Shown: positions 10,511-34,496 of the stretch, piece after piece
Position numbering within the stretch: position 1 is the stretch's first letter
Layout: each line of letters starts with the position of its first letter
From: an uncultured Clostridium sp.
GTDB lineage: Bacteria > Bacillota > Clostridia > TANB77 > CAG-508
Assembly (NCBI GenBank): GCA_900555085.1
Contig: USJU01000001.1
Location: forward strand, 1 to 40,853
Direction: 5' to 3'
Length of the DNA stretch: 40,853 bases
The notes under the pieces: generated by a model
Told to the model about the DNA's origin: nothing
Databases searched by the model: none
What the model saw: the letters and a program-made list of their open reading frames with translations, nothing else
Made by a program: the position numbers and the translations under genes

Positions 10511-10526
10511 CCTTCGGGTTATGAGC
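10511..10526. repeat. attL core (16-bp direct repeat)
   Basis: Identical to 34477-34492. Identity stops immediately on both sides. Confidence 0.75.
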
Positions 10527-10563: not shown

Positions 10564-10632
10564 AGTTTTTGTTGGTATTTCAGTATTTACAAAAGTTTTA
10601 ATTTATAGAACATTTGTGTTTTTTTAGGGCAT

Positions 10633-10664
10633 GAGGTATTTATTTTACCCAATTTTTACCCAAT
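10633..10664. repeat. 32-nt arm-type repeat (left copy), internally 2x TTTTACCCAAT
   Basis: GAGGTATTTATTTTACCCAATTTTTACCCAAT is identical to 34331-34362. Both copies lie just inside the element ends. Confidence 0.65.
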
Positions 10665-10751: not shown

Positions 10752-11045
10752 ATGAATAATTTAAGAGAAGTTAATGATGATATTTTGAACGATTGGTTAG
10801 AATTTAGAGAGGAAACTTTTCTTTGCCAACTTTCTGATAAGGATTATAAGTATAGTTTGAATTTTGATAAGTTTTGTGAAAAGATTTTGCGTAATGTTTC
10901 TAAAGATAATAAACAGTTTGTTCAGTCGCAACTTGATAAATTGTATGATGATTTTATGATGTATCTTGATTATTGGAACGAGAAGTATTATAGGAATGGT
11001 TTTTGTGATGGGGTGCAGTTGATTGGTGGTAGTTTTGATAATTAA
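10752..11045 (+). CDS. hypothetical 97-aa acidic protein
   Basis: Strong SD (TAGGAGGA) upstream and a long hairpin terminator downstream. No motif recognised. Confidence 0.6.
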   Translation: MNNLREVNDDILNDWLEFREETFLCQLSDKDYKYSLNFDKFCEKILRNVSKDNKQFVQSQLDKLYDDFMMYLDYWNEKYYRNGFCDGVQLIGGSFDN

Positions 11046-11227: not shown

Positions 11228-12775
11228 CTATTTTAATATTTTTAATATTATTTCAATAATACCATCTTCAAATTCTTCTAAAATTTCTTTTGAAATTTTT
11301 ACTGATGCTTTTCCATTTTTACTTGGATGTGAAACTGGATTAAAATTTCTTCTATCATAAAATTTTCTTATTAATATCTCCTCTTTATTTCCTATTATAT
11401 TATTTTTATATAATTTATTTATTATCCTTTCAACACTATCTTGATCATTTAGTTTAAATTTTTCTTTACAGATTTCATGAAATAAATTATGAAAATGATT
11501 AAATGCTGAATCTAAATTTCCATTTCTTATATTATAAACATACCATTTTAGCTGATTAATTATAGATTCGTTTATATTTTCTTGCTTTACTATTTCTACA
11601 ATCATTTTATTATACATAGTATTATTTTCACAAAGTATTTTTCTTGAGTATTTCGAATCCTTATTAAACTCATAATTTATTTGATTAAAAATACCTTCAT
11701 TTCCTAATATATTAATAGAAGTGTCATTTTTTATAATTTTCTTTAATATTAAAATATATTTTCCATAATTGTCTTTAAACAATTCTTCTCTATTCTGATT
11801 AATATATAAATCAAATTCACCATAATCATCAAAATCTATACCTTGACTGATCATTAATAAGATAATATGTAATAGCCTTTTATCTTTTAAATCCAGATTA
11901 TTTAGAATATATTCTACTAAAATATCTAAATAAGGATTTGTATTATTATCATTTATAAAAAATAATGCAATTAAAATATTCATTTGACTCACTGTTAATT
12001 CTATATCTAATTGACTTAGTATCTCTCTTATTCTCATTTTTATTTCCGGCTTTTTTAAATAGTTTTTTACACTTTCATCAAAAACTATTTTTAATTTTTC
12101 CTTATCTTTATCTGTAATTTTAAATTCAAAAGTATCTTCATCTGTAAATTTATATTTTTTAACAATTTCTAGCATTTCATCTATTTTCTTTTCTATTTCC
12201 TCATTCTTTGTATTATCTGTATTTGTATTATTTACATTTGAAACCTTCTTAGTATTATTCTCTATAAATTCTTTTCTAACATCTTTATTATGCATTATTG
12301 CATATTCTGTCTTTTTTTCATTTATTCTTAACATTAATTCATTATTCAAAAATAAAGACAATTCTTGTTCCAACTTAGATAATTCTTTAAATATTTCTTT
12401 GTTTGTTAGATTATTTTTATTTCTAAAAATAATCATTGTATCATCTACATATCTAATCATCGCTTTATATTCTAAATCGTATTTATCACAAATATCAATA
12501 ATATTAAAGTCTAATGGTAACAAGTATAATAATCCATACAAATCTGATACACAATTTACTTTTCCTTGAGGGATACCCTGTTTTCTATTCATAAGCGATT
12601 CAAAATAAAATAATAAGGTATCTCTTGCTTTTTCATCAATATCATAGATAGCTAATTTTGACTCCAACCCTAACTCTTTTAATAAATTTATTAATTTTTC
12701 ATGTTTCATGGTATCAAAATAATTACTTATGTCTATTTTTAAAATTATATCTCCTTCTTCTACTATTTCTTCCAT
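11228..12775 (-). CDS. AbiA-like reverse transcriptase, downstream portion: RT motifs A-E, a helical repeat region and a C-terminal HEPN-like motif
   Basis: Motifs: ILKIDISNYFD (motif A), GIPQG (motif B), RYVDDTMII (YxDD, motif C), INEKKT (motif D/E-like). The C-terminus has RRNFNPVSH (Rx4-6H). There is no SD before its ATG. It is in frame with 12824-13234 across a single TGA. Confidence 0.8.
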   Translation of the reverse strand: MEEIVEEGDIILKIDISNYFDTMKHEKLINLLKELGLESKLAIYDIDEKARDTLLFYFESLMNRKQGIPQGKVNCVSDLYGLLYLLPLDFNIIDICDKYDLEYKAMIRYVDDTMIIFRNKNNLTNKEIFKELSKLEQELSLFLNNELMLRINEKKTEYAIMHNKDVRKEFIENNTKKVSNVNNTNTDNTKNEEIEKKIDEMLEIVKKYKFTDEDTFEFKITDKDKEKLKIVFDESVKNYLKKPEIKMRIREILSQLDIELTVSQMNILIALFFINDNNTNPYLDILVEYILNNLDLKDKRLLHIILLMISQGIDFDDYGEFDLYINQNREELFKDNYGKYILILKKIIKNDTSINILGNEGIFNQINYEFNKDSKYSRKILCENNTMYNKMIVEIVKQENINESIINQLKWYVYNIRNGNLDSAFNHFHNLFHEICKEKFKLNDQDSVERIINKLYKNNIIGNKEEILIRKFYDRRNFNPVSHPSKNGKASVKISKEILEEFEDGIIEIILKILK

Positions 12776-12823: not shown

Positions 12824-13234
12824 TCATCCATCATCATTATTAATAAATCTAGTTGGCGAAAAATGAAAAACATTTCTATTCTCAAATTTAACTTTATTTA
12901 AAAAATCATTACACACATCTACAAATAATAACCCCACTGCATTATACAAAATCATAGACATCATTGTAAAAAATTTGTACTCTCTTAATCCATTAACATT
13001 TTTAGGAATAGAAACTGTATCTGCTGAAAATAGATATGGAATAGCATAAAAGATTTCTGACTTTATATATTTTTGATAGTATGCTCTTATATTATTTTCT
13101 GTTATTGATTGAAATGCATTCTTTAATAGCATTAAATTTATATCTGTTATAAATTCTTTTTCCGAATATTTTTTACATATTTTATATGCATTTACAAATA
13201 GTTCTTCTGTTATTACATCTGATATTTTCTTCAT
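12824..13234 (-). CDS. AbiA-like reverse transcriptase, N-terminal portion (fingers, RT motif 1), ending at an in-frame TGA
   Basis: SIPKNVNGLREYKF matches RT motif 1 (IPK..G..R). SD AAGGAG lies upstream of the ATG at 13234. The TGA stop is at 12824-12826, and 16 sense codons link it in frame to the next ORF. Confidence 0.75.
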   Translation of the reverse strand: MKKISDVITEELFVNAYKICKKYSEKEFITDINLMLLKNAFQSITENNIRAYYQKYIKSEIFYAIPYLFSADTVSIPKNVNGLREYKFFTMMSMILYNAVGLLFVDVCNDFLNKVKFENRNVFHFSPTRFINNDDG

Positions 13235-13251
13235 AATTACTCCTTATATTT

Positions 13252-14559
13252 TTAGAATGGTAAATCATCCTCTATCAAAAGCATTTCATCATACTTAAAA
13301 TTATTATACTTTTTTAAGTCTATCTTTTTCCAGTTAATATTGGATTTTTTTATTATATCATTATTGTCATATTCTGATCTACCTCTATTATATATTTGAT
13401 TATTTTTATTAATTTTTTCTATTAAAGTTTCAATTTGCCTTTGTTGCATTCTACTTATATTAGGTCTAATCATTACATCAAAATTTAAATCTGCGTCATC
13501 AAAACATACACTATTTCCAAAGCAATCAATATATTTGTCAAGTAAAAGTATTTCTTTTCCTTCATCTTTTATCTTTTTTTCTAATAACTCTCTTGTATGC
13601 TTATTTATAAAATTGATTGTATTGAGTGTACTAATATGTTCTTCAATATTTTTTGATGTATAGTATGCAATTGTTTTATAATCATTGTTTTTATTAACTA
13701 CTACTTCAGTTGCTATCTTATTATCTTCTTTTAAATAATTGTATACTTCTGGGAAATAATACATAAATTCTACTAAATATATTGCAATTTCTTCATTATC
13801 ACTTATATTATTATATTTATCTTTTTCTTTTTGGATATCTTCTAATATTTTCAATTTATATTCTCGCATTGTCAAAATTAAAAATTCTAAATTAATTTTT
13901 CTATTGATATTGCAATCTTCATTATCTAATTTAAATGTTATCTTCCAGAAATCTCTAAAAATACTAATTATCATATTTTGTGGTATTCTCTCAAAATACT
14001 TTTTTTCTATATATCTTTTAAATTTCTCTTTATCCTCTAAAAAATCTTCCTTTTTACTTGATATATCATCTAATAAATTATTTGTTATTTTCTTTATAAA
14101 TAAAGGTGGCCTTATAAAAATGCCTATTAGCATTTCTTTTATAAGTCCTAGCGTTTTTTCTCTCGATGGTCTTATTAGTTCATTGTTTTGATTTAAAGAA
14201 GGATGCGCTGAAAAATTTCTTACATTTTTTAAATCTTCTATATTGGCTAAAACATATGGTTCTATAATATTAGTTTTATCTTTAATCCTATCAATCAATT
14301 TATTCTCCCATTCTGAACTTTTAGGATTACTTTCTCTAATTTGGTCTATCTCTTTTAATATTTCTTCTGCAACTGAATCTAAATAGTAATCTTTTAATTC
14401 TTCTAATTTAAATAATAAATCTGCAATTACAACAGAATACAACATTACAATTGCTGACCTATAATTTTCGCTATAAAATGAGCGTTCTACTTCTTCAAAA
14501 TATTCTTTAGTTCTTGGGAAATATATTTGTTCCTTCAACTCTGATATGTTTTGTTCCAA
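13252..14559 (-). CDS. HEPN-domain (DUF4145-like) protein with an uncharacterised C-terminal extension of about 280 aa; TTG start
   Basis: The N-terminus reads SENYRSAIVMLYSVVIADLLFKL ... LKNVRNFSAHPS (RNxxxH HEPN motif). SD AGGAGG lies 7 nt before TTG at 14559. Its stop is 17 nt before the RT start. Confidence 0.7.
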   Translation of the reverse strand: MEQNISELKEQIYFPRTKEYFEEVERSFYSENYRSAIVMLYSVVIADLLFKLEELKDYYLDSVAEEILKEIDQIRESNPKSSEWENKLIDRIKDKTNIIEPYVLANIEDLKNVRNFSAHPSLNQNNELIRPSREKTLGLIKEMLIGIFIRPPLFIKKITNNLLDDISSKKEDFLEDKEKFKRYIEKKYFERIPQNMIISIFRDFWKITFKLDNEDCNINRKINLEFLILTMREYKLKILEDIQKEKDKYNNISDNEEIAIYLVEFMYYFPEVYNYLKEDNKIATEVVVNKNNDYKTIAYYTSKNIEEHISTLNTINFINKHTRELLEKKIKDEGKEILLLDKYIDCFGNSVCFDDADLNFDVMIRPNISRMQQRQIETLIEKINKNNQIYNRGRSEYDNNDIIKKSNINWKKIDLKKYNNFKYDEMLLIEDDLPF

Positions 14560-14621: not shown

Positions 14622-15560
14622 TTACCTTTTCAAATAATATTTCATTATTTCAGCATATTGATCCTGTGCATTTAAACAGGTATCAATTAAATATCCTTTT
14701 TCTCCACCATTTTGATATTCTTTTAATCCTCTATAATAGAACAATTTATCCTTATCTAATATAATAAAAGGAATTATATTATTTTTTAAACACTCTTTAA
14801 AAATAATTATTCTACCCACTCTACCATTTCCATCTTGAAATGGATGTATCTTTTCGAATCTTGCATGAAATTCTATTATTTCTTTTATTGTTATTTTGGA
14901 TAAAGAGTTGTACCAATCCATTAATTTTGTCATATCCCTTTGAACATATTTAGGCGATGTAGTTTTTGTGCTTCCTGCTTCATTAACAACTTGTTTATAA
15001 TCACCAACTTTAAACCATTCTTTTCTACTATCTGCAGTTCCTTCTTTTAATAATCTATGAAATTCTTTTATCATATCTTCTGTCAAATTTTCTTCCGCTT
15101 TATCTAACATGTAATCCACTAGCTTAAAATGATTAGCCATTTCTAATATATCATCAACACTTGCAATTGTTTCTCCTTCAAATAAAATTGTATTTGTTTC
15201 AAATATATATCTCGTTTGATCTTCTGTTAATTTGCTACCTTCAATGTGGTTTGTATTATATGCAAATATAATTTGTGTATTATGATATAAATTACCTTTT
15301 AATTTCATTTCTTTTTGTTCTCTTAGTATATTTAATACATTAATTTTAGATATATCAAATCTATCTTGCTCATCATTCAATAATTCATCAACAGAAACTT
15401 CAAATATTTCAGCTAACTTTTTTAATGATTCGATATTAGGCTCTAATGTACCTGATTCATATTTTGATACGGTTGCAGATTTCACTCCCAATATATCTGC
15501 AATCTCATTTTGAGTCATATTTTTACTTTCTCTATATGATTTTATTTTTTCTCTTAACAT
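14622..15560 (-). CDS. XRE-family HTH fused to a Fic/DOC domain protein
   Basis: The N-terminal HTH reads MTQNEIADILGVKSATVSKYESG. The C-terminal Fic motif is HPFQDGNGRVGR (HxFx[DE]GNGRxxR). Confidence 0.9.
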   Translation of the reverse strand: MLREKIKSYRESKNMTQNEIADILGVKSATVSKYESGTLEPNIESLKKLAEIFEVSVDELLNDEQDRFDISKINVLNILREQKEMKLKGNLYHNTQIIFAYNTNHIEGSKLTEDQTRYIFETNTILFEGETIASVDDILEMANHFKLVDYMLDKAEENLTEDMIKEFHRLLKEGTADSRKEWFKVGDYKQVVNEAGSTKTTSPKYVQRDMTKLMDWYNSLSKITIKEIIEFHARFEKIHPFQDGNGRVGRIIIFKECLKNNIIPFIILDKDKLFYYRGLKEYQNGGEKGYLIDTCLNAQDQYAEIMKYYLKR

Positions 15561-15604: not shown

Positions 15605-15658
15605 TTCCAAAAAAGAAAGATATTCTTAGTGATTGTTTAAATAATATCTTTTTTGGAA
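15605..15658. promoter_or_regulatory. long inverted repeat upstream of the HTH-Fic gene (terminator of the upstream operon and/or operator)
   Basis: TTCCAAAAAAGA(aag)ATATT ... AATATCTTTTTTGGAA gives stems of 12 + 5 bp. A TATAAT lies just downstream on the minus strand. Confidence 0.45.
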
Positions 15659-15690: not shown

Positions 15691-16992
15691 TTAGTTCCAA
15701 TAATAATATGAACCATATTTATCTAATTTATTATTTTTATTATCCATAGATTCTGTATGTTTTCTTTTTCCAAGAAGTTCATCTTCTTCATCAATAATAG
15801 GATCAAACCAATTTGCTTTCTTATTAGCCCAATTAATCCATTCTTTTATTTCATCTGTTAAGTTTTCTTTTTTAGAAACAGCATCAATATAATTTCTTAT
15901 CTCACATGCTATTTTATAATCTTCTGCACAATTTATCAACTCTTTAATTTTTTCTACTTCTTTCTTTTTGGCATTTCTAATTTTTTCTTTTCTTTCTTCC
16001 TCTTCTCTTTGTTTTCTCGCAATTTCTTCTCTTTCTAATCTTTCATTTTTCGTTTCTTCAGATTGTTCATATAATTTTATAATTATATCTCCTAGTTTAT
16101 CTTCCAATCTTATTTTATCATTTTCTCTTATGTATTTTCTGTTGCCACAGGTTATTTTTAATTTACCATTCCAAACATAATCATACTTCTTTATATTAGG
16201 CTTATATCCAAATGTATTTCTCTTTTGGGATTCCTCATATTCTAATATTTTTTTTGCCTCTTCTTTAGTCAATTCATGCATTACTTTATCTTGTAATTCT
16301 TCTATTTCAATTGTAATATGTTCTTCACGAACTTGTAGTGAAAAATCGTTGTTTACTTTTCCTCCTAGTTCTTCTATTGCAAAGTAAATCGCACTTAATA
16401 TCTTCATACATCTATCTTTTTGTAGTTTTGATATATTAGAAAAATATCCCTTTTCTACGTAATCATGAATATTATAATAAGGATTAAAATAGTTCGCTTT
16501 TCTTTCTTCTCTTCGTTCTTCTTTTTTCTTATTTTTATATTCAATAATTACTTTATGATTTCTCTTGTATTTATCTACACTTAGATCATAAATAACTTCA
16601 GCTACCTTCTTTTTTTCATCTTCTTCTAGAAAGTTTAGAGAATTAAATTCTTGAATAAATTTATCTTTATCGCTAACTTTTTCATCAATCAATACTCCAG
16701 TATTTTTAAGTGGAATTTCAATTTCTTTTTCTTTTGCTTCTGGCAATTCAACAATTTCAGTTGAAAAATCCAAGCCCATATTCTTCTTAGTCCAATATGC
16801 TGAAGATGGATATGGAATATTATTTTCTTTGCAAGCTTGTACCAATTTCGTGTAATTCAGTCCATATTTTTTAGAAACACCTGTTAATGAAATATCCCAA
16901 ATTTCATCATAAAGTTTTTTTCTTTCAAATTTCATAGATAAACTATCCATAAACATCTTCCTTTCCTTCAAATTTCTTTTCTTTATTTTCAT
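15691..16992 (-). CDS. hypothetical protein with a strongly charged coiled-coil segment; the start may be at M13/M15 (about 16950-16956)
   Basis: 433-aa ORF. The N-terminus KKLYDEIWDISLTGVSKKYGLNYTKLVQACKENNIPYPSSAYW looks HTH-like. The ERLEREEIARKQREEEERKEKIRNAKKKEVEKIKE segment looks coiled-coil. Confidence 0.6.
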   Translation of the reverse strand: MKIKKRNLKERKMFMDSLSMKFERKKLYDEIWDISLTGVSKKYGLNYTKLVQACKENNIPYPSSAYWTKKNMGLDFSTEIVELPEAKEKEIEIPLKNTGVLIDEKVSDKDKFIQEFNSLNFLEEDEKKKVAEVIYDLSVDKYKRNHKVIIEYKNKKKEERREERKANYFNPYYNIHDYVEKGYFSNISKLQKDRCMKILSAIYFAIEELGGKVNNDFSLQVREEHITIEIEELQDKVMHELTKEEAKKILEYEESQKRNTFGYKPNIKKYDYVWNGKLKITCGNRKYIRENDKIRLEDKLGDIIIKLYEQSEETKNERLEREEIARKQREEEERKEKIRNAKKKEVEKIKELINCAEDYKIACEIRNYIDAVSKKENLTDEIKEWINWANKKANWFDPIIDEEDELLGKRKHTESMDNKNNKLDKYGSYYYWN

Positions 16993-17025
16993 ACTTTCCT
17001 AGCGAAAGCGCATACTCATATAGTT

Positions 17026-17370
17026 CTAGTTCTCTTGTTCTGCGTTTTCGCTTAATATAAAAAGTAATTCATTTTTCATTGATTCAAATTCTTTTATAAT
17101 AGTTTCCAAATTGTTTTCAATATTTTGAACTCTAACTTCAGATATTTTTCCATATTTATATGCAATCAACCTTTCAGCAACTATATAATATGACCAACTC
17201 TCTGAAAATCCCCTATCATTTTCTTCATTATGAACTGCAAAACCTATCGGTAATAAATTATTTCTCATACCAATGGAAACTGCATTGGCTGATATTCCTA
17301 AATAATCTCCTGCAATCTGGCATGTTATTTTAGTTTTATTTCTTATATCATCATCTGTATATTTGCTCAT
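17026..17370 (-). CDS. hypothetical 114-aa protein, possible HTH DNA-binding protein
   Basis: SD GGAGGGAG upstream. The segment ITCQIAGDYLGISANAVSIGMRNNLLP resembles an HTH. Confidence 0.55.
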   Translation of the reverse strand: MSKYTDDDIRNKTKITCQIAGDYLGISANAVSIGMRNNLLPIGFAVHNEENDRGFSESWSYYIVAERLIAYKYGKISEVRVQNIENNLETIIKEFESMKNELLFILSENAEQEN

Positions 17371-17389
17371 TAAACTCCCTCCTATTTTA

Positions 17390-18217
17390 TTATGCTATAT
17401 TTTCTATTTCCATATTTGGAAAATCATCTATTTGTTTTTCATCTTGAACCATAAATTTATAATCACTATAATAATTTAATCCGTCATTAGCACTAGATAA
17501 CTTGTACTCTAATATGGCATCTTGTTCATATATATTGAATACTAGATCTTGATAATATAAAGTAATTTTAAAATTATATATTTCTTCTGTTTTCAACCTT
17601 AAGACAAATGGTATTATTACCTCTTGTCCTTTTTCAATAACACTTTCTTTAGCAATTTCAAAAATATATTTACGTTTCAATATATTGCTTTCTATTTTCA
17701 TATAATATTTTCTTATAGAATTTAATCCAATATTTTTCAAACTTAATGTAATTTGTTGTATAACTCCTTTATCTTCTTCAATATTGGTATCCAATTGAGT
17801 TAATTCAACTGATGCATTTCTTCCTTGTACACAATCATATTTTAAAAGTGGCATATTTTGTATTCTGAAATTTTCTTTATCTCTCTTATCATTTTCTTCA
17901 TTATTCTTTTTTATTTGATAAATTGTAACAAATACTGAAACCAAAGCTGCTATTCCCGCGCTAATAATACCTGTAGTATAAGTTGCAATGAAATTAAGCC
18001 AGTTTTGTGTATTAACATTTATATTCCATCCTAATTCCGTTGGTACATTAAATCTATCAAAATAATAAATAATTAATATTGCACTATCTACTATTGCTAA
18101 TACAATATAAGAAATCTTTTCTACTAAACTATTAGACTTTTCTGTACTTTTATAAATGAAGTATAGTGTTAAGCTTATAATAGTTAATGTAATTATAAAT
18201 AATATAATATTTCCCAT
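17390..18217 (-). CDS. multi-pass membrane protein (3 predicted TM helices) with a beta-rich C-terminal domain of about 170 aa
   Basis: Start moved to M17 (MGNIILF...), which follows SD AAGGAG at 7 nt. Hydrophobic helices: IILFIITLTIISLTLYFIY, ISYIVLAIVDSAILIIYYF, FIATYTTGIISAGIAALVSVFVTIY. Confidence 0.6.
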   Translation of the reverse strand: MGNIILFIITLTIISLTLYFIYKSTEKSNSLVEKISYIVLAIVDSAILIIYYFDRFNVPTELGWNINVNTQNWLNFIATYTTGIISAGIAALVSVFVTIYQIKKNNEENDKRDKENFRIQNMPLLKYDCVQGRNASVELTQLDTNIEEDKGVIQQITLSLKNIGLNSIRKYYMKIESNILKRKYIFEIAKESVIEKGQEVIIPFVLRLKTEEIYNFKITLYYQDLVFNIYEQDAILEYKLSSANDGLNYYSDYKFMVQDEKQIDDFPNMEIENIA

Positions 18218-18292
18218 AAAATTCTCCTTATTAAAAAAAAGCAAAATAATTATGTAATATATCATTACTCACTTACTTTGCTTTTCTTTTGT

Positions 18293-19186
18293 CTATTTTT
18301 TATTTACTTTTAAAGACTGCTTGATCAATGGAATTACATTATCAATATCATCCTTCTTATCTATTATGATACAATAATCTCCATTTCCCCAATGACCAAT
18401 TCCACTAATGTCTTTTGTAAGTTTTAGAGGATCATTTAGGGAATCTTTTTTCATATTAATGTATATTTTTAATTTATTCTTATGAAATTCTATATCTGCG
18501 ATATTTCTAATTCCTTTGAATGCTATGTATAGTTTCTTTGCTTCCACATCTATATCGTCTAATTCTAATATTCTATTTTTTAATTCTTCATATACTCTTT
18601 TTATATTGTCCGAAACTTTAGATAAATGATCTTCCTCAGTATATACAATTATTTCTTTATTAACATCGTTTTGTATAGATTCCATTTGAATATCTTGCAC
18701 TTTAACATTGCTTGTCTTTTTTATAAAATCAATTTCGGTAATATCATCTTCATATCTGGTTAGTTTAACTAAATCTACTGGTATATTTTTGAAGTCTGTA
18801 GCATTTAATTGATATGCTGTATAAATTGGTGCAACAAATATAATTCTTGATTGGCTCCAATCTATATCTTGAGTAGTTAGCGATGACTTAGTTTTTATGT
18901 TGTATTGAAGAACAAAATCTGCTTTTCTCTCTAGCATCAATTTTAAATATGTATAACCCTGGTCAACTAAAGAATGATTTTTAACATTTTTATATTCAAT
19001 TATTCTAAATGATTTAGATTCTTCATCAAAAGCTAAAGAATCAATTCTAAAATCGCCTACTACAAATTCTGTATCTATAAATTTATATCCTAATATTGTT
19101 TCAATGTTGTTTTCGAAAAAATTTTGTAATTCTTTTTCATTTTTAAAATCCTTTTGTTTTAATTCTTTATTTGCTTTTAAAATCAT
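18293..19186 (-). CDS. PD-(D/E)xK nuclease-like protein (NucS/DUF91-like N-terminus) with a DUF5655-like C-terminal domain
   Basis: GDFRIDSLAFDEESKSFRIIEYKNVKNHSLVDQGYTYL fits the D...ExK...Q..Y pattern. SD AAGGAG upstream. Confidence 0.55.
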   Translation of the reverse strand: MILKANKELKQKDFKNEKELQNFFENNIETILGYKFIDTEFVVGDFRIDSLAFDEESKSFRIIEYKNVKNHSLVDQGYTYLKLMLERKADFVLQYNIKTKSSLTTQDIDWSQSRIIFVAPIYTAYQLNATDFKNIPVDLVKLTRYEDDITEIDFIKKTSNVKVQDIQMESIQNDVNKEIIVYTEEDHLSKVSDNIKRVYEELKNRILELDDIDVEAKKLYIAFKGIRNIADIEFHKNKLKIYINMKKDSLNDPLKLTKDISGIGHWGNGDYCIIIDKKDDIDNVIPLIKQSLKVNKK

Positions 19187-19208
19187 ATAATTTCTCCTTC
19201 AAATTAAA

Positions 19209-19766
19209 TTATTCCTTTTCTCCTTCACTAGACTTTTGTCCTGTTAATTGGCAATATCTCTTCGTTGCCTCTTCATCCTTAGCTAGATTTGCCATAGTTA
19301 ACACATAATTAACATTCGTTTGTGAATCTATTGGTACTTTAGATTCAATCGCTTTTCTCACCAATAAAGTTAATGGTTCACCTATAGCTTGTTTATAGTT
19401 AAATCCTATAAGTTGCATAATTGTAAGTGTCTCAACAGACAATATTTTTTTCATTTTTTCAATTTCAACTTGATCCGGAAGAAATTCTCCAAATATAGGC
19501 AATAAATTATCTGTAATATATTTTATATCATTTTCTGTAATTTTTTGTGAAACTAATTCTTGTTCATATGCTTGAGCAATTCGTTGAATTTCAGCCTTAT
19601 CATTTAATAAATCAGATATTATTTCTTCCAGTTCAGCAATAGTTTCTTTGTCATTTCTTTTTGCTTTACTAGCATTTATTTTCTTTGATATAAAACTTGC
19701 GCCATTTCTAGCAGTTGCTTCAGCTAAATTTGCTGCTAATTGTGCAACAATTTGATTATCATCCAT
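19209..19766 (-). CDS. hypothetical 185-aa helical protein
   Basis: SD GAGGAG upstream. It starts 20 nt after the hsdR stop. No motif recognised. Confidence 0.55.
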   Translation of the reverse strand: MDDNQIVAQLAANLAEATARNGASFISKKINASKAKRNDKETIAELEEIISDLLNDKAEIQRIAQAYEQELVSQKITENDIKYITDNLLPIFGEFLPDQVEIEKMKKILSVETLTIMQLIGFNYKQAIGEPLTLLVRKAIESKVPIDSQTNVNYVLTMANLAKDEEATKRYCQLTGQKSSEGEKE

Positions 19767-19786: not shown

Positions 19787-22700
19787 TTATTTTACCATTT
19801 CTTTACACTTTAACTCAGCTTGTCTTATAACAGTTTGAACTGCCTTTTCGCTTTTGTTGGGTGGATAATTATATTTAATTAAAAGCTTCTTAATTTCAAT
19901 TCTCATTTTGGCTCTTGCATCTTTTCTAATATCCCAATCTATTGTCATATTACTATTAACCGTTTCTACAAGTTCTTTTGCTATTTGAACTAAGATTTCA
20001 TCTTTCATTAATTCTTTAACTTCTGGATCATCTCCTAATGCATCAAAGAATGCCTTTTCTTCAGTTGATAAATTAAATTCATTTCCTGCTTTTAATTCTT
20101 CTTCAATTTCATTTTTTAAGTTTATTAATTCTTCAATTATTTTTTGTATGTCTTCTACGCTTGTCCTTTCATTATATGTCGCTGCAATCTTTTGGAACTT
20201 TGTTGAAAATTTTTCCATCATAACAACATTCTGTCTTCCTATTTGATTAACATACTCTTTTAAAGCTCTATTCAGTACCTCAACTGCAATATTTTTCTTT
20301 TGCATTTTTGCTAACTTATTTAATATATCATTGCTTAATAATGCCAATTGATTACTGTTGTGTACTTCTCCTATTTGTAACATTTCATCATCTTGTATTG
20401 CTCTTTCTAACATTTGCGCTACATTTGCGTTTATTTCTTTAACGTCTATTCTTTCTCCGCTTAGTTTTGATATGAATGATCTTACAGCTATAAAGAATAA
20501 TATTTCATCTTTTAATTCCTGTGATAATGCTCCTGTGCATAACGCATATAAGCTTTTAACATCATAACTATATTTCATAAATGCTTTTTTAATTTCTTCT
20601 GTTTTGAGCATCAAGTTCGCTCCTGCCATAATAATTTCATACTTATCGCTATCTGTTGTTGTAGCAAAATGTCCATAATAGAATCCTTTAAATAAATCTC
20701 TGATTAATTCAACTTTATCATTTAAAACTTTTACCAATTCACTATTGTCTACAATTTTGCCTTGGTCTCTCTTCGTATATGTTTTCAATGCATCCAGCAA
20801 CCATCTTTTTAGTCCTATATAATCAACAATTAGTCCACCAGTTTTATCTTTATAAACTCTATTAACTCTTGCAATTGCCTGCATTAAGTTATGTGCTTTC
20901 ATAGGTTTGTCTATATACATAGTTCCAAGTCCTGGTACATCAAATCCTGTTAACCACATATCTACAACTATTGCGATTTTGAATTCAGAATCCATATCTT
21001 TAAAATTCACTTCTAGCTGCTTTTTATCTTTTTTAGAGCCTATTGCTTTTTGCATATCTTCGTCATCTTTATTATTAGATGTTATTATCATATTGACTTT
21101 GTTTTTCCATTCTGGTCTAAGTTCTAAGAATTTGTTATACATTGTAAATGCAGATTGTCTTGAATATGCTACAACCATTGCTTTATTAGCCACACTTGTT
21201 TCTATTTCCTCATAATGCTTTATAATATCTTTAACTATCATTTCTAGTCTATCTGGATCTTCTATTATTTGTTTCATTGTAGCCATTGCTTTTTTAGATT
21301 CTGCTATTTTATAATCATCAATACCTTCTTCTGTTTCAAGCATATTGTAATAATCATCTATCTCATCTAATATCTTTTGATTTAGTCCAACTCTAGCCAT
21401 TCTTGATTCATACATAATTGGTACTGTTGCACCATCCATAATTGCTTGTGTCATATCGTATGTATCTATTATATCTCCAAACACATTAGTTGTTGACTTG
21501 TCTTTTGTTTCAACAGGTGTTCCTGTAAATCCAATATATGTTGCATTTGGAAAAGCATCATGCAAATACTTAGCTGTTCCATATTTTTTATATGCTTCCA
21601 TTTTAGCTTTATCAAATTTTATTGTTGCATCTAATCCGTAATGGCTTCTATGTGCTTCATCTACTAAAACTAAAATATCGTCTCTTTGGCTAAATACTCC
21701 TGTTTCTTCTTCAAATTTCTGTAATGTAGTAAAGAATATTCCACCAGATTTTCTGCCTTCTAATTTCTCGTTTAAATCTTGTCTATTTTCAATTTGTACT
21801 GGTTCTTGTTTTAAATATTCAGAGCATTTTGCGAATGTTGTAAATAACTGATTATCTAAATCATTTCTATCTGTTACAACCACTATACTTGGATTATTTA
21901 ATACTTTTATCATATTACCAGCATAAAATACCATTGAAAAGCTCTTTCCACTTCCTTGTGTATGCCAAAGTAATCCAGCTTTTCCCGTTTTGTTATCTAT
22001 TGCATTTTCTGTACTGGCTATAGCTTTCTTAACTCCAAAATATTGATGATATGCTGATAAAATTTTACTATCTTCACTCCATAATATAAAATTACTTATA
22101 ATATCTAATAATCTATCTTTTCTAAGCATTCCATTGAATAGAGTTTTATGGGTAGGCATATTCTCTAATACTTCATCTGTATCTTCAACCTTTTTCCATT
22201 CCGAAAATCTACTCCATGGACTGGTGATAGTTCCTGCTCTTGCTTGTACTCCATCACTTACAATCATAAACTGGTTATAATAGAATAGTGATGGTATATG
22301 TACTTCTTGATAACCTTTTAATTGATTATATCCATCTATTAACTTAACATCTTCTCTTACTGTTGATTTTAGTTCAACAACAACTAAAGGCATACCATTT
22401 ATAAATATAATTATGTCTGGTCTTTTTTCACTATGCTCACTGATTGTATATTGGTTAATTGCTTTGAATGTATTATTTTGGATATTTTCAAAATCTATTA
22501 TTTTAATAGTTTTATATTTTGTTTCTCCATCTTCTTGAATCGGTACAGAAATTCCTTCTAATAAATATTTAGTAAATTGCTTATTGTTTAATATAGTATT
22601 GTTATTGTCTAAGTTTCTAATTGTTCTTATAACTTCTTGTATTTGTTCCAATTCAATTCCTCTATTCATTCTTTCTATTGCTTCCAAAAGCTCTTCTTCT

Positions 22701-22813
22701 AACAATACTTTAGAGAAATCTGTACGTTCCATTTCATATCCATTTATACATTCATATTCTAATTCTTTTAACATGTCCATTGTTACATTTTCTAGTGTTT
22801 CTTCATCAAACAT
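19787..22813 (-). CDS. hsdR: type I restriction enzyme, R subunit
   Basis: 1008 aa. The N-terminal nuclease region contains RPDIIIFINGMPLVVVELK. The SF2 helicase motifs include HTQGSGKS and VLVDEAHRSHY (DEAH). Confidence 0.95.
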   Translation of the reverse strand: MFDEETLENVTMDMLKELEYECINGYEMERTDFSKVLLEEELLEAIERMNRGIELEQIQEVIRTIRNLDNNNTILNNKQFTKYLLEGISVPIQEDGETKYKTIKIIDFENIQNNTFKAINQYTISEHSEKRPDIIIFINGMPLVVVELKSTVREDVKLIDGYNQLKGYQEVHIPSLFYYNQFMIVSDGVQARAGTITSPWSRFSEWKKVEDTDEVLENMPTHKTLFNGMLRKDRLLDIISNFILWSEDSKILSAYHQYFGVKKAIASTENAIDNKTGKAGLLWHTQGSGKSFSMVFYAGNMIKVLNNPSIVVVTDRNDLDNQLFTTFAKCSEYLKQEPVQIENRQDLNEKLEGRKSGGIFFTTLQKFEEETGVFSQRDDILVLVDEAHRSHYGLDATIKFDKAKMEAYKKYGTAKYLHDAFPNATYIGFTGTPVETKDKSTTNVFGDIIDTYDMTQAIMDGATVPIMYESRMARVGLNQKILDEIDDYYNMLETEEGIDDYKIAESKKAMATMKQIIEDPDRLEMIVKDIIKHYEEIETSVANKAMVVAYSRQSAFTMYNKFLELRPEWKNKVNMIITSNNKDDEDMQKAIGSKKDKKQLEVNFKDMDSEFKIAIVVDMWLTGFDVPGLGTMYIDKPMKAHNLMQAIARVNRVYKDKTGGLIVDYIGLKRWLLDALKTYTKRDQGKIVDNSELVKVLNDKVELIRDLFKGFYYGHFATTTDSDKYEIIMAGANLMLKTEEIKKAFMKYSYDVKSLYALCTGALSQELKDEILFFIAVRSFISKLSGERIDVKEINANVAQMLERAIQDDEMLQIGEVHNSNQLALLSNDILNKLAKMQKKNIAVEVLNRALKEYVNQIGRQNVVMMEKFSTKFQKIAATYNERTSVEDIQKIIEELINLKNEIEEELKAGNEFNLSTEEKAFFDALGDDPEVKELMKDEILVQIAKELVETVNSNMTIDWDIRKDARAKMRIEIKKLLIKYNYPPNKSEKAVQTVIRQAELKCKEMVK

Positions 22814-22823
22814 AATTTGCCCC

Positions 22824-23459
22824 CTACAATTTTATTTGATTTTCAATATTATTTATAATGTTTTTTTCTATAATTGCCTCATACAATTGTTTTATTTTAT
22901 CATATTCAGTATATAAATCTTCTCTAAATTTTCTTTCACCAAATTCTTTTTGTAATTTAATAAACTCTGTCGAATTTTTACTATTTTTTTCAAGAATCCT
23001 ATTTAATATAATTTGCTCCTTATACATTAATCTTAATAGTTCTTGATATTCGTATACAAACTCTTTGATTAAATTAATACAATCTCCGTTAAATAAAAAT
23101 TTCATCTCAATTGATAATTTCTTAATCTCTTCTAATTTTATTAAAAAATTTTGTCTAATATCCTCTTGTTCAACATTGTCTATTATTGTACCAATATCCT
23201 TTAGATATATATTATTGGTTAAGCTATGAAATAAAACAGTTACATCTATAAAATGATCATAATCTTCTTTATCCATCAAATGTTTGCTTTCCTTAAAAAG
23301 CGAGATTAAACCATTTATAGTAATAAATCTATCCACTCTTTTATCAAATAATTGATGCTTATTACTAATTGTTATTTGTCTATGAGTTTGCCACAGTGCA
23401 ATAACAGCTATAATTGCAGTTATTATTGCAAAAATATTGTTTCCAATAAATTGTCCCAT
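22824..23459 (-). CDS. hypothetical N-terminally membrane-anchored protein embedded between hsdS and hsdR
   Basis: SD AAGGAG upstream. Single TM helix NIFAIITAIIAVIALW, followed by a helical region of about 180 aa. Its stop is 10 nt before the hsdR start. Confidence 0.6.
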   Translation of the reverse strand: MGQFIGNNIFAIITAIIAVIALWQTHRQITISNKHQLFDKRVDRFITINGLISLFKESKHLMDKEDYDHFIDVTVLFHSLTNNIYLKDIGTIIDNVEQEDIRQNFLIKLEEIKKLSIEMKFLFNGDCINLIKEFVYEYQELLRLMYKEQIILNRILEKNSKNSTEFIKLQKEFGERKFREDLYTEYDKIKQLYEAIIEKNIINNIENQIKL

Positions 23460-23495
23460 ATTATCATCTCCTTATACAAATCACCATTTGTCTGA

Positions 23496-24662
23496 CTAAA
23501 TTTCTATTCTGTCTAGGTCTATTTCTCCATTCATCAGTTTTGGCAATAATGTGTCTCTTAATTGTTCTAATGTAAGATTTTCTTCGCAATTAAATATTAT
23601 TTTATAATAAACTGAATTTAACTTTTCATATATATCTTTTAAATTATTTTCTGTAATATCATTTACTATAATATTTTCTATATCATTTGAACTTATGTTA
23701 GGTTGTGCACTTCCATATCCTTTAGAATTTAACAATGTTTGAAATTCATCTGAAAGAGCTAATATCTTTAAATACAATTCTTTTTCCTTACTTCTTCCTC
23801 TAATAACACCAACACGTTGGTTTAGATAGTATTTATCAAACCCATATATAAAACCAGTTTTTCCCAATTCAGCTCCAGTCATAGCAATTGCAACATCGCC
23901 TTTGTTTAATTGAAATTTATTATCAATTTTATTTGCAATTTCATCTTCTACAAACTGAGAGTTAAGAACATCTGCATTTATTTCATTTCTTAAATTTTTA
24001 ATTTTAATAATTCTATTATTAGTTTTATTTTCTAATAAATCTTTACTTTTAAATGCATATCCTCCTTGAATTTTAGCAAAATTGCTTAATGGTACTTCTG
24101 CATCTTCTTTTTTATTATTTATATAGTTAATAGCAAATTCAAACAAATTATCATTTATCTGATTATTCAGCTCTATTCTTTTATCTATACTAGACAAAAC
24201 TTTACCAATTTTAATCTGCTCTTCATAGCTTGGTATTAACATTTCAGTATTTTTTACAACATCTAATTGTACTCTCTGTCTTCCTGATGTTCCAGTCATA
24301 GATTTAATTGCAATTTCTCTAAATTTTGGACTTATTGCAAGATAAAAAATAAAATCTTCATCTGAAATATTCTTTTTACTTCTCATAACAATATATTCTG
24401 TAGAACCAAAACCAACTTCTTCTTCATCTAAAATTGTAACTTTTGATGTTTTTCCATTTTCCAAGCATGGTGTTATTCTTGCCAATAAGGTATCTCCATT
24501 TCTAAATTTCATACCTCCATTGTATTTTTCTATATCAAAAGAATTTATATATTTTGAAAACACGCCCAATTTGTCCATTGGAATTTTTTTAGATACAGTT
24601 CCTTTTTTTAATGTTTCAGTTGGATTAAATTCTATTATATCCTCTAATTTTTTATATTCCAT
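23496..24662 (-). CDS. hsdS: type I restriction enzyme, S (specificity) subunit; start placed at MEYKKLEDI
   Basis: Two target-recognition-domain halves are separated by conserved helical spacers (LIPSYEEQIKIGKVLSSIDKRIELN; LEQLRDTLLPKLMNGEIDL). GGAGG lies 9 nt before the ATG at 24662. The gene overlaps the hsdM stop. Confidence 0.9.
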   Translation of the reverse strand: MEYKKLEDIIEFNPTETLKKGTVSKKIPMDKLGVFSKYINSFDIEKYNGGMKFRNGDTLLARITPCLENGKTSKVTILDEEEVGFGSTEYIVMRSKKNISDEDFIFYLAISPKFREIAIKSMTGTSGRQRVQLDVVKNTEMLIPSYEEQIKIGKVLSSIDKRIELNNQINDNLFEFAINYINNKKEDAEVPLSNFAKIQGGYAFKSKDLLENKTNNRIIKIKNLRNEINADVLNSQFVEDEIANKIDNKFQLNKGDVAIAMTGAELGKTGFIYGFDKYYLNQRVGVIRGRSKEKELYLKILALSDEFQTLLNSKGYGSAQPNISSNDIENIIVNDITENNLKDIYEKLNSVYYKIIFNCEENLTLEQLRDTLLPKLMNGEIDLDRIEI

Positions 24663-26154
24663 ACCCAATAGCCTCCAAGTTCTTCTTAATTTTTTCTTCC
24701 AACTTATGAGACTCTTCAAATTGTGCTTTTAATTCAGTTGTTATTGTTTTCATTTTTTCTTCAAAAGGTATTCCATCGTCTTCTTGTTCTTCTGTTCCTA
24801 CATATCTACCTGGTGTAAGGACATAATTGTTTTCTTCTATTTCTTTTATTGTAGATACTTTACAGTATCCTGCTACATCTTCATAATTTTGATTGTTTTG
24901 GAAATTATGATATGTATCTGCAATTTTAGATATATCGTCTTCATTTAGTTCTCTTAATTTTCTTGTTACCATTGTTCCAAAATTTCTTGCATCTATAAAC
25001 AATGTTTTTCCTTTTTGTTTCTTGTTTCTATTTAAAATCCATATACTACAAGGTATTGTAACTGTGTAAAATAAATTAGATGGCATTGATAATATACAAT
25101 CTACTAAATCTGCCTCTATTAAATTTTTTCTGATTACCTCTTCTTGTCCCCCTGCTGATAAAGAGCCATTTGCAAGTATTATTGCTGCTTTACCATTCAT
25201 AGATAATTTTGATACCATATGTTCAACCCAAGCAAAGTTAGCATTTCCTTTTGGTGGTATTCCATATTTCCATCTAGGATCATCTAATAATTTTTCTTGT
25301 CCCCAGTCACTAATATTGAATGGAGGATTTGCTAATACAAAATCTGATTTTAAGTCTTTGTGTAAATCATTATGAAATGTATCGTCTGCGAACTTTCCCA
25401 ATCCGTCATTATTTATCCCTCTAATAGCTAGATTCATCTTCGCTAATTTCCATGTTGTTGGATTTTTTTCTTGTCCATATATAGTTAAATTTCTTGCATT
25501 ACCATTGTGTCTGTGAATGAATTTTATACTTTGTACAAACATTCCCCCAGAGCCACATGCAGGGTCATAAATTCTACCTTGATATGGTTCAAGAATCTCA
25601 ACCATTGTTCTAACTAAGCAGGCTGGTGTATAGAACTCTCCACCTTTTTGTAACTCGTTAGATGCAAATTGTCCTAAGAAATATTCATATATTCTTCCTA
25701 AAATATCTTTATCTTGTGCTTCTTTACTTCCAATTTTTATATTAGTAAATAAATCTATAATTTCCCCTAAATTTACATTTCTATAATTGGGGCTATTAAA
25801 TTCTTTAACTAAAACACCTTTTAAAGATGGATTTTCTCTTTCTATTTCTTCCAAAGCATCATCAATAATTTGTCCTATGTGAGGATCCTTAGAATGAGCA
25901 TTTAAATATTCCCATCTAGCTCTAGCTGGAACATAAAATACATTATCTGCCTCATAACTGTCTCTATCTTCTTCAAGTCCATAACCATCTTTTACTAAGA
26001 TTTGATATTTCTCTTCAAATGCATCAGAAATATATTTTAAAAATATTAATCCTAATATTATAAATTTATAATCCGAAACAGGAACAGCTCCTCTCATTTT
26101 ATCTGCTGATTCCCATAATTTTTTTTCTAGTTTTATTAATTCTTCTTCCTTCAT
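24652..26154 (-). CDS. hsdM: type I restriction enzyme, M subunit (N6-adenine DNA methyltransferase)
   Basis: HsdM N-terminal domain (LWESADKMRG). AdoMet motif DPACGSGGM. Catalytic motif NPPF (LANPPFN). Confidence 0.95.
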   Translation of the reverse strand: MKEEELIKLEKKLWESADKMRGAVPVSDYKFIILGLIFLKYISDAFEEKYQILVKDGYGLEEDRDSYEADNVFYVPARARWEYLNAHSKDPHIGQIIDDALEEIERENPSLKGVLVKEFNSPNYRNVNLGEIIDLFTNIKIGSKEAQDKDILGRIYEYFLGQFASNELQKGGEFYTPACLVRTMVEILEPYQGRIYDPACGSGGMFVQSIKFIHRHNGNARNLTIYGQEKNPTTWKLAKMNLAIRGINNDGLGKFADDTFHNDLHKDLKSDFVLANPPFNISDWGQEKLLDDPRWKYGIPPKGNANFAWVEHMVSKLSMNGKAAIILANGSLSAGGQEEVIRKNLIEADLVDCILSMPSNLFYTVTIPCSIWILNRNKKQKGKTLFIDARNFGTMVTRKLRELNEDDISKIADTYHNFQNNQNYEDVAGYCKVSTIKEIEENNYVLTPGRYVGTEEQEDDGIPFEEKMKTITTELKAQFEESHKLEEKIKKNLEAIGYGI

Positions 26155-27182: not shown

Positions 27183-28037
27183 TTAGCAAATAGTTTGGTC
27201 GCTTATGCTAACTTTTTCTTTTGCTTTTATTTCTTCTGCAATTGAAATTCCATAACACATTTCATTCAGAACTTCAACAATTTCTTCTGAAATTTCTGTA
27301 TCATCTTCAGTAGATAATTGTTCAATTAATTGCTCTTTATTATATCTTGTTGTAATAACAATTGGTAATTCATTATCATATCTATTACTAATAATTTTAT
27401 TTAATTTTTCTAAAGCCCATTTGCTTAAATTTTCACTACCAAAATCATCAATAATTAACATATCTACATTAGAATATAGTCTAATAATTTGCGTTTCTGA
27501 TAGTCCATCTTTATTAAACGATTCTTTAATTTTATCAATTATAGAGCTACTTTTTTCCATTAATACAATTTTGTTTTGTTCAATCATTTTATTAGCTATA
27601 CAAGCTGCTAAATATGTTTTTTCATAGCCTATATTTCCATAAATAATCAGTCCATTTTTCATCTCTGATTCAATACATAAATCTGTAAATTTTATTAGTT
27701 GATTTATAATAGATGTATCATCATATGTATCAATAAGATTTTCAAAATTATACTTTTGTAATCTTTTTTTCATATAGTTATCTTTATAAATACTATTTAT
27801 AATTTTTCTATACTTTTCTTGTCGCTGTTTTTCTTCTTGTTCAAAATCAAATTTTTTCCAAAATTGAATTGCTTTTTCACAATTACATCTTTCATATTCA
27901 ATCATACTTTTATCATAATTTACATATAAATAATCGAATCCAATTGGCTTTAAATTTTTATTACAAAATCCACATTTTGCACCTTCATTGGTGATAACTT
28001 TATAATTTGAATTCTTTAAATCCACTTCTATTCTCAT
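27183..28037 (-). CDS. DnaC/IstB-like AAA+ helicase-loader homologue with an N-terminal Cys-cluster
   Basis: Walker A-like GNIGYEKT and Walker B MLIIDDFG. N-terminal CGFC...CNC. It follows a replisome-organiser gene. Confidence 0.7.
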   Translation of the reverse strand: MRIEVDLKNSNYKVITNEGAKCGFCNKNLKPIGFDYLYVNYDKSMIEYERCNCEKAIQFWKKFDFEQEEKQRQEKYRKIINSIYKDNYMKKRLQKYNFENLIDTYDDTSIINQLIKFTDLCIESEMKNGLIIYGNIGYEKTYLAACIANKMIEQNKIVLMEKSSSIIDKIKESFNKDGLSETQIIRLYSNVDMLIIDDFGSENLSKWALEKLNKIISNRYDNELPIVITTRYNKEQLIEQLSTEDDTEISEEIVEVLNEMCYGISIAEEIKAKEKVSISDQTIC

Positions 28038-28509
28038 CTCCTTCTTTTTCTATTTTATTTCTAATCTTTTTCTCTTCTTTAGTGTTACGTTGCGTTACTG
28101 TAACGTTACTTTTTTCTTTTTCACTTTTCATTTTTTCACGATATTTTTGTTGCCTTAAACAATTTTGTAGTCTAATTTCTTCAAGTTTATCAGCACTTTG
28201 ATACTTAGACCAGTTTTTGATTTTATAAAAATTATCTTCTATAATAATCATTTTTAATTCTTCAAACTTTTCCAAACATTTTGTGATTTTTTTCTTAGAC
28301 TTTCCCATAATCTTCGAAAATTCCTCAACTGTCATTGGCTTATCTTCTGTTATTGATAATCTACCTTGATAATTACATTTCATTGCTATTGTTAAAAGTT
28401 GTATCCATACTCTAATTAGTGTATCTCCATCTCTTTCACTTTCTAGCAATTTTATTTTGTTATTATCAAAAAAATCCGTAGATAGTTTTAACCATTGTAA
28501 ATTAGTCAT
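28000..28509 (-). CDS. phage-type replisome organiser (N-terminal domain family)
   Basis: MTNLQWLKLSTDFFDNNKIKLLESERDGDTLIRVWIQLLTIA matches my recollection of the phage replisome organiser N-terminal domain. It is followed by a DnaC-like gene. Confidence 0.65.
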   Translation of the reverse strand: MTNLQWLKLSTDFFDNNKIKLLESERDGDTLIRVWIQLLTIAMKCNYQGRLSITEDKPMTVEEFSKIMGKSKKKITKCLEKFEELKMIIIEDNFYKIKNWSKYQSADKLEEIRLQNCLRQQKYREKMKSEKEKSNVTVTQRNTKEEKKIRNKIEKEGDENRSGFKEFKL

Positions 28510-34097: not shown

Positions 34098-34330
34098 TTT
34101 GAACTTTTTTCTAATTTTCACAAATTACAAATTTTCACGATGTAAAAAGGTAAAAAACTTTGAGATTATATATCTCTTTCCCAAAAGTTTTTTACTATAA
34201 ATTTAAAAATTTTATTGCAATTTACATTATTAAATTATGTTAAAATTTAAAATATTTATTTATAACATTGTAATGTAAGTATAAAATTTTAATGAATTTT
34301 TATTGATATTTATGGCATTTGAGGTATTTA

Positions 34331-34492: not shown

Positions 34493-34496
34493 AAAG

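Follow-up and report, generated by a model that had tools for sequence, protein, structure and literature searches.

Five closely packed genes downstream of hsdR in a gut Clostridium form four separate cassettes, probably stacked in the defence cargo of an integrative element

Five closely packed and co-directional genes (g1 to g5) follow hsdR of a type I restriction-modification (R-M) operon in an uncultured gut Clostridium, and the question that they raise is whether such an arrangement reflects one functional system or several. The genes are located on contig USJU01000001.1 of assembly GCA_900555085.1; the window, i.e. the complete stretch of DNA that was analysed, comprises 40,853 nucleotides. 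A preliminary description, made from the sequence alone, had proposed that the five genes constitute a single sensor/effector defence module. We found that the array consists of four autonomous cassettes, g1, g2, g3 and the pair g4-g5, and it is likely that these were stacked independently in the defence-cargo region of an integrative element of ~24 kb, located between uvrC and glmS. The earlier interpretation is thereby partly supported: the setting, defence cargo beside a type I R-M operon, was correctly identified, as was the association of g2 with R-M operons, but the module as such is not upheld.

The map of open reading frames (ORFs) and the intergenic gaps agree with the gene arrangement as first described, and considering the many homologues with very strong E-values, g1 to g5 are real genes and not chance ORFs. 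Homologues were gathered for g5, g3 and g1 and their genomic contexts retrieved, and g2 homologues were collected from plasmids. In addition, GTDB genomes were scanned with g5, the IMG/VR collection with distant g5 relatives and metagenomes with g2. All proteins of the island were compared by tblastn with every locus (26 + 23 + 80 loci; overall ~150 related loci, numbered with the prefix L, were compared). PADLOC matches refer to the models of PADLOC-DB v2.0.0. The preliminary description had recognised none of the five proteins as part of a named system. This holds for g1, g3, g4 and g5, for which no significant match was obtained in PADLOC, Pfam or NCBIfam (g4 separately matches phrog_6058), but not for g2, which is the catalogued candidate PDC-S18; accordingly, the PADLOC check of the region identified g2 and provided no model for g3, g4 and g5.

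The full hsdR-g1-g2-g3-g4-g5 block was kept in one other locus (L034) and partly in three more (L033, L078 and L085), all of which are 94-100% identical copies of the window element. At greater distance, homologues of each unit (g1, g2, g3 or g4-g5) occurred without the other members, and joint occurrence of the five genes in other genomes was limited to element copies of at least 94% identity. The points at which homology between loci breaks off coincide with gene boundaries. Between g2 and g3, the homology with L043 starts at window position 18310 and continues to 14628 (g3-g4-g5-Fic), and upstream of this point a type IIG R-M system replaces the hsd genes, g1 and g2. In L034 the homology ends at the stop codon of g5, and a further breakpoint lies at the ribosome-binding site of g4. 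Within the element copies, a deletion of ~655 bp in L033 (equivalent to window 17231-17887) has cost g3 its 3' portion and g4 its 5' portion, and L034 and L085 carry a frameshift in g1, which indicates that the cassettes decay independently. Since the homologues are scattered without shared synteny, the very pattern that the preliminary description had itself taken to speak against a module, the one-module reading fails. The cassettes were probably joined head-to-tail via recombination at gene boundaries.

The compact packing can be accounted for without a common function. The gaps from hsdR to g5 measure, in order, 20, 22, 27, 19 and 33 nt; if the inner starts of g3 and g5 are used, the third and the fifth gap widen to 75 and 69 nt, respectively. 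On basis of the lengths of the homologues, inner starts are preferred for g3 (M17) and g5 (M13), both of which have a good ribosome-binding site. The inward shift of predicted starts in the preliminary description agrees with the homologues for g3 (275 residues); g5 had been given 433 residues, where the homologues favour 421. Each of the five genes has its own ribosome-binding site and the minus strand from hsdR to g5 yielded no terminator-like site. Given these short gaps, ribosome-binding sites and lack of terminators, transcription from the hsd promoter probably continues through the cassettes, each of which would nonetheless work alone. The hairpin downstream of g5, to which the end of the operon had been assigned, is weak: its stability is not significant (fold z = -1.67) and there is no separate T-tract past the stem. 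The hairpin and a promoter-like TATAAT likewise precede the Fic gene in L043, and homology elsewhere stops at the g5 stop codon. As the hairpin travels with Fic in L043, it represents the front of the Fic cassette and not the end of a five-gene operon. More generally, a functional system does not follow from tight packing on one strand. Independent cassettes in the cargo arrays of mobile elements pack like the genes of an operon, and module scans that rely on spacing alone will over-call.

The element that carries the array resides in a chromosomal region with housekeeping genes on both sides (mutL, groEL, CTP synthase and uvrC on the left; glmS and its ribozyme on the right) of a Clostridium sp. 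CAG:273-like organism; the G+C content of the window is ~25%. The nearest public sequence is scaffold FR901497.1 of Clostridium sp. CAG:273 (L033), in which g5 is 100% identical. Sister loci share a fixed backbone, with an integrase (93-97% identity over the visible part), a helix-turn-helix (HTH) protein of the HTH_17 family (81-100%) and orf207 (70-84%), and they also keep the replisome organiser, the IstB-like gene and a terminal ORF of 97 aa. The latter is 41-68% identical in 23 related loci and is always the last gene, at the cargo end. Just past it, in 8 loci, we found the 22-bp core TTTTACCCAATTTTTACCCAAT of the 33-bp direct repeat that brackets the island in the window. Near the integrase end the minus strand at 34447-34495 resembles a tRNA in its 3' portion, with a CAT anticodon loop, a T arm and an ACCA end; ARAGORN called no tRNA at this sequence. 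The integrase, HTH_17 protein, replication module and flanking direct repeats are hallmarks of a phage-inducible chromosomal island (PICI) or an integrative mobilisable element, and a more distant relative (L011) encodes ParB_N and Relaxase domains. In the window element itself none of the ORFs had a Pfam match to terS, capsid, packaging or relaxase domains, which is why it could not be classified as either.

The same backbone carries other cargo in L005-L008, L039, L041, L079, L080, L083 and L088. In the sister loci the region between orf207 and the terminal ORF contains a Dam methylase with an AlwI endonuclease, or other type I, type III or type IIG R-M systems, as well as PbeA-like, PDC-S53, MADS-like, PDC-S01, Fic and nSTAND genes, so the content of this slot is interchangeable and consists mostly of defence genes. 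The interval from the integrase to DUF6076 is a second cargo hotspot, occupied by PDC-M68A/B in the window and by a Pycsar-like pair (PycTM and a cyclase; 638-2520) in L005-L007. The cargo array of the window itself spans ~15 kb and comprises the type I R-M operon, g1, g2, g3, g4-g5, Fic/PDC-S04, PD-T7-3 and AbiA, making at least eight cassettes on one strand throughout.

Among the four cassettes g2 is the one that can be related to a catalogued defence candidate. It matches the PDC-S18 model over its full length (PDLC04945, 1.7e-106; residues 7-292 of 297 against profile positions 12-301 of 302). The DUF5655-like C-terminus that had been recognised before is corroborated by Pfam (2.3e-11). 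The N-terminal domain is predicted to be a PD-(D/E)xK nuclease, as proposed earlier, and this assignment rests on the motif, since the Pfam match to NucS_C is below the cut-off (15 bits against 24; E 0.025); a PDB sequence match was not obtained. When six homologues from Bacillota, Pseudomonadota and Actinomycetota were aligned, the motif residues D49, E64 and K66 proved invariant, together with Q76 and Y80, and so did G264, H265, G267 and G269 of the C-terminal part. The gene is embedded as hsdS-g2-hsdR on plasmids of Acinetobacter and Cupriavidus, lies beside hsdMSR on a Rhizobium plasmid and beside a NACHT gene in Streptomyces, and occurs alone in Staphylococcus. Copies of 90-92% identity directly follow a type III Mod-Res pair in the sister elements L079 and L088. 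An hsdM or hsdR match was present within 8 kb in around 20 of the 80 metagenomic g2 loci, and no constant partner emerged. Within 86 g2 loci g1 was present only in the near-identical element and an adjacent g4-g5 pair was never found. Single-protein scans of a viral collection with g2 and with g5 gave no match.

Payne et al. 2024 (bioRxiv 10.1101/2024.01.29.577857) defined the PDC candidates through their embedding in BREX, DISARM or type I R-M systems ('guilt-by-embedding'); the name PDC-S18 was not found in the main text or the supplements examined. A full-text literature search yielded no paper that names PDC-S18, and literature searches on PDC-S18, DUF5655 and DUF6076 yielded nothing relevant; an anti-phage activity of g2 thus stays a prediction. 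Compared with the PDC-S18 homologues that are embedded in type I R-M operons, g2 of the window follows hsdR and is not positioned between hsdS and hsdR, and its sisters are found behind a type III Res subunit. The known setting of PDC-S18, type I R-M operons, is thereby extended to those of type III, which hints at a link with ATP-dependent restriction subunits. In fact, the repeated placement of g2 just behind ResIII-type subunits, in both R-M types, is the sole support for a functional tie between g2 and R-M. Considering the many copies that have no R-M system nearby, we treat g2 as an independent layer of immunity, in which a nuclease of the PD-(D/E)xK type would act as an extra barrier behind the ResIII-type subunits.

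The pair g4-g5 is the only conserved pair of the array; it is widespread and, like the large family to which g5 belongs, has no assigned function. A g4 gene was located directly upstream of g5 in 24 of the 24 close loci with upstream DNA, and in 17 of the 19 distant prophage loci from IMG/VR (hidden Markov model search; E 1e-45 to 1e-64), where the g5 relatives are 24-37% identical to a query that is itself ~40% identical to g5; as these loci were chosen by homology to g5, the counts show that g4 accompanies g5, and not how frequent the pair is among elements. None of the loci with g4-g5 contained g1, g2 or g3, save the copies of the window element with at least 95% identity. The conserved stretch runs from the ribosome-binding site of g4 to the stop codon of g5. 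We considered g4-g5, which every locus retrieved with g5 contains, as part of the element backbone and dropped this option, as two loci found via g2 (L080 and L088) have the backbone without the pair. In L080 the pair is missing from the 8 kb downstream of g2. In L088, where all cargo between orf207 and the terminal ORF can be seen, a type III R-M system, g2 and an nSTAND gene are present and g4-g5 is not, which makes the pair a facultative cassette.

With respect to the proteins, g4 has a putative HTH and a C-terminal helix and matches phrog_6058 (6.6e-11). The HTH-like character that had been ascribed to it is retained as putative: its resemblance to the HTH_17 protein of the element is weak (30 columns, hhalign probability 42%), a Pfam HTH_17 match is lacking and searches of PDB sequences gave nothing useful. 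For g5 we recovered 200 close homologues, and the family comprises 4,299 representative clusters (50% identity; E<=1e-3). There was no sequence match in Pfam, PADLOC, PHROG, NCBIfam or PDB, nor did a Foldseek comparison of the g5 model with PDB and BFVD return a match. In the protein, an N-terminal HTH-like module of 50 aa is followed by a central alpha/beta part and then by a long coiled coil, which is modelled as a helix of 78 residues and ends in a conserved W..WA..KADWxDP motif. Both the HTH-like N-terminus and the coiled coil noted in the preliminary description are thus supported. The N-terminal ~50 aa ('LYxEVW...GYW') resemble the C-terminal module of phage HNH nucleases (profile comparison, 85% probability), which are carried by large phages of Salmonella, Vibrio and Stenotrophomonas, for instance Salmonella phage Munch (CPT_Munch_461; L077). 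In an alignment of 38 members the invariant residues are Y16, W20 and P50 in the N-terminal module, H227, E233 and D259 in the central region and R354, W376, W383, D385 and P386 in the C-terminal helix region. Longer relatives of g5 possess the N-terminal module twice; that they are g4-g5 fusions was ruled out, since the extension is the duplicated module. As a side observation, the 'LYxEVW...GYW' module of phage HNH (homing) endonucleases is without a Pfam model. The g5 relatives on plasmids lie among hypothetical genes and were uninformative. Judged from sequence, g4-g5 may be a DNA-binding two-protein cassette, composed of a small HTH protein and an HTH/coiled-coil protein, that serves as accessory cargo of temperate elements.

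The third cassette, g3, behaves as a stand-alone unit and encodes a membrane protein. The earlier proposal of three transmembrane (TM) helices and a beta-rich domain is supported by the AlphaFold2 model (pLDDT, the predicted local distance difference test, 82), in which the TM helices are connected via a long stalk helix to an Ig-like beta-sandwich. The sandwich is inferred to be cytoplasmic by the positive-inside rule, given the Lys/Arg-rich segments after TM1 and TM3. The family comprises 124 homologues of 275-285 aa, and with Foldseek the model retrieved only generic Ig-like, CARDB, ApaG and TRAP-type folds (E ~1e-4). In 8 loci g3 homologues occurred without g1, g2, g4 and g5. Homologues with 40-51% identity follow Gabija, or are flanked by DpnII and Gabija or by an Eco57I-type methylase and ApeA; in the element family itself g3 follows the type IIG R-M system in L043 (88%) and a g3-like gene is located downstream of g5 in L041 (45%). 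The protein has no catalytic signature, and a role as effector in abortive infection or exclusion is a guess that rests on the neighbours.

An all-helical protein of 185 aa is encoded by g1, which likewise behaves as a stand-alone cassette. A significant match to Pfam, PADLOC or PDB was not obtained, the only PADLOC similarity being a match of 55 residues to KwaB (E 0.0019). We collected 344 homologues (64-99% identity), and in 10 loci these occurred without g2 to g5 and without hsdR. Homologues with 66-80% identity reside in a DpnII-type R-M operon, flanked by its two methylases (L021-L024), amid unrelated unknown genes in another island (L017-L020) and in a non-defence neighbourhood of an Oscillospiraceae genome (L025). 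Conversely, L081 has hsdR-g2-g3, with g1 missing between hsdR and g2. A cysteine-rich protein of 291 aa, absent from the window, is encoded near the g1 homologues in two of these contexts (L017:7033-7908 and L022:6223-7098; 81% identical).

Against this background it is very improbable that g1 to g5 represent one novel sensor/effector system co-opted onto the type I R-M operon. The tight gaps, a ribosome-binding site for every gene, the lack of a terminator between hsdR and g5 and the preservation of the block in L034 (in part also in L033, L078 and L085) would all fit such a system, but the loci concerned are merely copies of the same element, distant homologues of each unit lack the others and the members decay independently, so that the scattered synteny has already largely refuted it. 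A connection of smaller scope, in which g2, possibly together with g1, is an accessory of translocating restriction enzymes (a nuclease recruited by HsdR/Res, or a guard on the inhibition of restriction), is unlikely as well. In its favour, Firmicutes and Proteobacteria have g2 within type I operons or 22-53 nt past them, the gene comes straight after the type III Res in L079 and L088, and g1 is embedded in a DpnII-type operon elsewhere. However, hsd genes are near only the minority of metagenomic g2 copies mentioned above, no type I R-M system adjoins the plasmid copies from Staphylococcus and Streptomyces, the partner R-M type varies (I and III), PADLOC lists g2 as a single-gene candidate, and g1 and g2 do not occur together outside the window element. 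The interpretation as independent cassettes has its own weak spots. Besides the selection of the g4-g5 loci by g5 homology, tblastn may overlook very divergent hsd or partner genes, and the roles of g1, g3, g4 and g5 as well as the co-transcription of the array are predictions from sequence. Moreover, g2 and a g3-type gene adjoin in three contexts, the window element, L081 and L089/L090 (in the latter g2, 73% identical, is followed by a g3-like gene, 31% identical, and then hsdR and hsdM), so there may be a loose association between the two, which is possibly coincidental; the very different divergence of g2 and the g3-like gene in L089/L090 argues against co-evolution.

For the role of g4-g5, a regulatory or maintenance module of temperate elements around which cargo accumulates, for example a regulator of lysogeny or cargo or an addiction module, is a serious rival that we regard as possible, although doubtful. 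It derives its weight from the unusual conservation of g4, which is 58-91% identical across the prophage loci where g5 drops to ~30%, and from the position of the pair on prophage contigs, near the contig end and after an endolysin or two tandem large serine recombinases. In Flavonifractor phage Cormatin a relative of g4, not paired with a g5, lies among the early regulatory genes, which points in the same direction, as do the putative HTH modules in both proteins and the lack of a PADLOC match. Yet L088 has the same backbone and not the pair, which implies that the element does not need g4-g5, and the pair is associated with tyrosine- and serine-recombinase elements alike, including an island (L001) without a replication module within 7 kb. 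Furthermore, the boundaries of the cassette are as sharp as those of the neighbouring defence genes, and the pair is almost invariably flanked by defence genes on either side; some prophage loci have PDC-S53 or a MADS-like ATPase after g4-g5. Considering these neighbours, the sharp boundaries and the dispensability, g4-g5 is most likely an uncatalogued two-gene cassette for defence or exclusion, and a regulator of the mobile element is less likely; both remain predictions. The more ambitious claim that g4-g5 is a new and widespread system for anti-phage or inter-element exclusion, with g3 as a new single-gene membrane defence protein, can be put forward only tentatively. If true, such a system would combine a small conserved HTH protein with a large protein made up of DNA-binding modules of the homing-endonuclease type, the central region with invariant H227, E233 and D259, and a coiled coil.

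The organization described above has counterparts. Defence-cargo hotspots are known in P4-like satellites, PICIs and integrative conjugative/mobilisable elements, which likewise have a fixed backbone (integrase, HTH_17/AlpA-like protein, replication module and terminal gene) and exchangeable slots for R-M, abortive infection (Abi), Pycsar and Gabija systems, with swaps at gene boundaries; unlike in these, the array in the window is long. The accessory or 'moron' loci of prophages adjoin the integrase or the att site, comparable to the distant g4-g5 pairs after serine recombinases or endolysin, which sometimes have defence genes next to them, whereas g4-g5 of the window is in the middle of the array, 15 kb from the tyrosine integrase. 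In Campylobacter, the 'rlo' genes act as independent defences from within type I R-M operons. The same applies to PrrC, as cited in the above preprint (bioRxiv 10.1101/2024.01.29.577857), and to TgvAB of the Vibrio cholerae island VPI-2, a two-protein type IV restriction system that resembles GmrSD (PMC11411939). The array shares with PrrC, TgvAB and 'rlo' the presence of extra defence genes that are co-oriented with hsd, tightly spaced and probably co-transcribed, but there is no sequence relationship with PrrC or TgvAB and none of g1 to g5 matches either in PADLOC. The array is a further case of defence cargo on an integrative element, with one catalogued candidate (PDC-S18) and three uncatalogued cassettes. 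The family of gut Clostridia elements, with its fixed backbone and exchangeable defence array, is a handy natural source of candidate defence genes, and g4-g5, g3 and g1 are three such candidates with clear boundaries for cloning, g4-g5 being the pair most worth testing.

Table 1. Positions of the five genes, the surrounding cargo and the element features in the window.
Feature	Position	Strand	Basis or remark
g1, 185 aa	19209-19766	-	
g2, 297 aa	18293-19186	-	
g3, 275 aa (likely start M17, 18217)	17390-18217	-	longest ORF to 18265, 291 aa
g4, 114 aa	17026-17370	-	
g5, ~421 aa (likely start M13, 16956)	15691-16956	-	longest ORF to 16992, 433 aa
Hairpin, AT-rich, then promoter-like TATAAT	15605-15658	-	
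HTH-Fic (PDC-S04)	14622-15560	-	PADLOC 8.9e-106; Pfam Fic, HTH_3
PD-T7-3	13252-14559	-	PADLOC 3.7e-127
AbiA-like reverse transcriptase, two ORFs	12824-13234 + 11228-12775	-	PADLOC 6.2e-06 / 1.5e-20; Pfam RVT_1
Terminal 97-aa ORF, far end of element	10752-11045	+	orientation opposite to cargo
Type I R-M operon	19787-26154	-	ORF map
hsdM	24652-26154	-	
hsdS	23496-24719	-	
Embedded 211-aa ORF, between hsdS and hsdR	22824-23459	-	
hsdR	19787-22813	-	TIGR00348, 5e-181
orf207, 207 aa	26244-26867	-	
IstB/DnaC-like ATPase/loader	27183-28037	-	Pfam
Phage replisome organiser (Phage_rep_org_N)	28000-28509	-	Pfam
HTH_17 protein, 65 aa	28538-28735	-	Pfam
DUF6076	28886-29929	+	Pfam
PDC-M68B + PDC-M68A (HNH protein + LmuB-like ATPase)	29953-32592	-	PADLOC
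Tyrosine integrase	32904-34097	+	Pfam Phage_integrase
Exact direct repeat, 33 bp	10632-10664 and 34320-34352		brackets island; candidate att or arm site
Exact direct repeat, 16 bp	10511-10526 and 34477-34492		brackets island; candidate att or arm site
glmS ribozyme, upstream of glmS	35248-35400	+	Rfam RF00234, 83.4 bits

Some further features of the cargo were observed. The AbiA-like gene is split into ORFs of 136 aa (AbiA profile positions 30-111) and 515 aa (142-585), which is probably due to a frameshift or reflects a pseudogene. The ORF of 211 aa between hsdS and hsdR, which has a hydrophobic N-terminus and no Pfam or PADLOC match, is 74% identical in L033, was undetected in L034 and might represent another embedded candidate. 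Finally, among the element copies (L033, L034, L078 and L085) hsdM and hsdR are 95-97% identical and hsdS only 28-57%, making clear that the specificity subunit has been exchanged between copies of the element.

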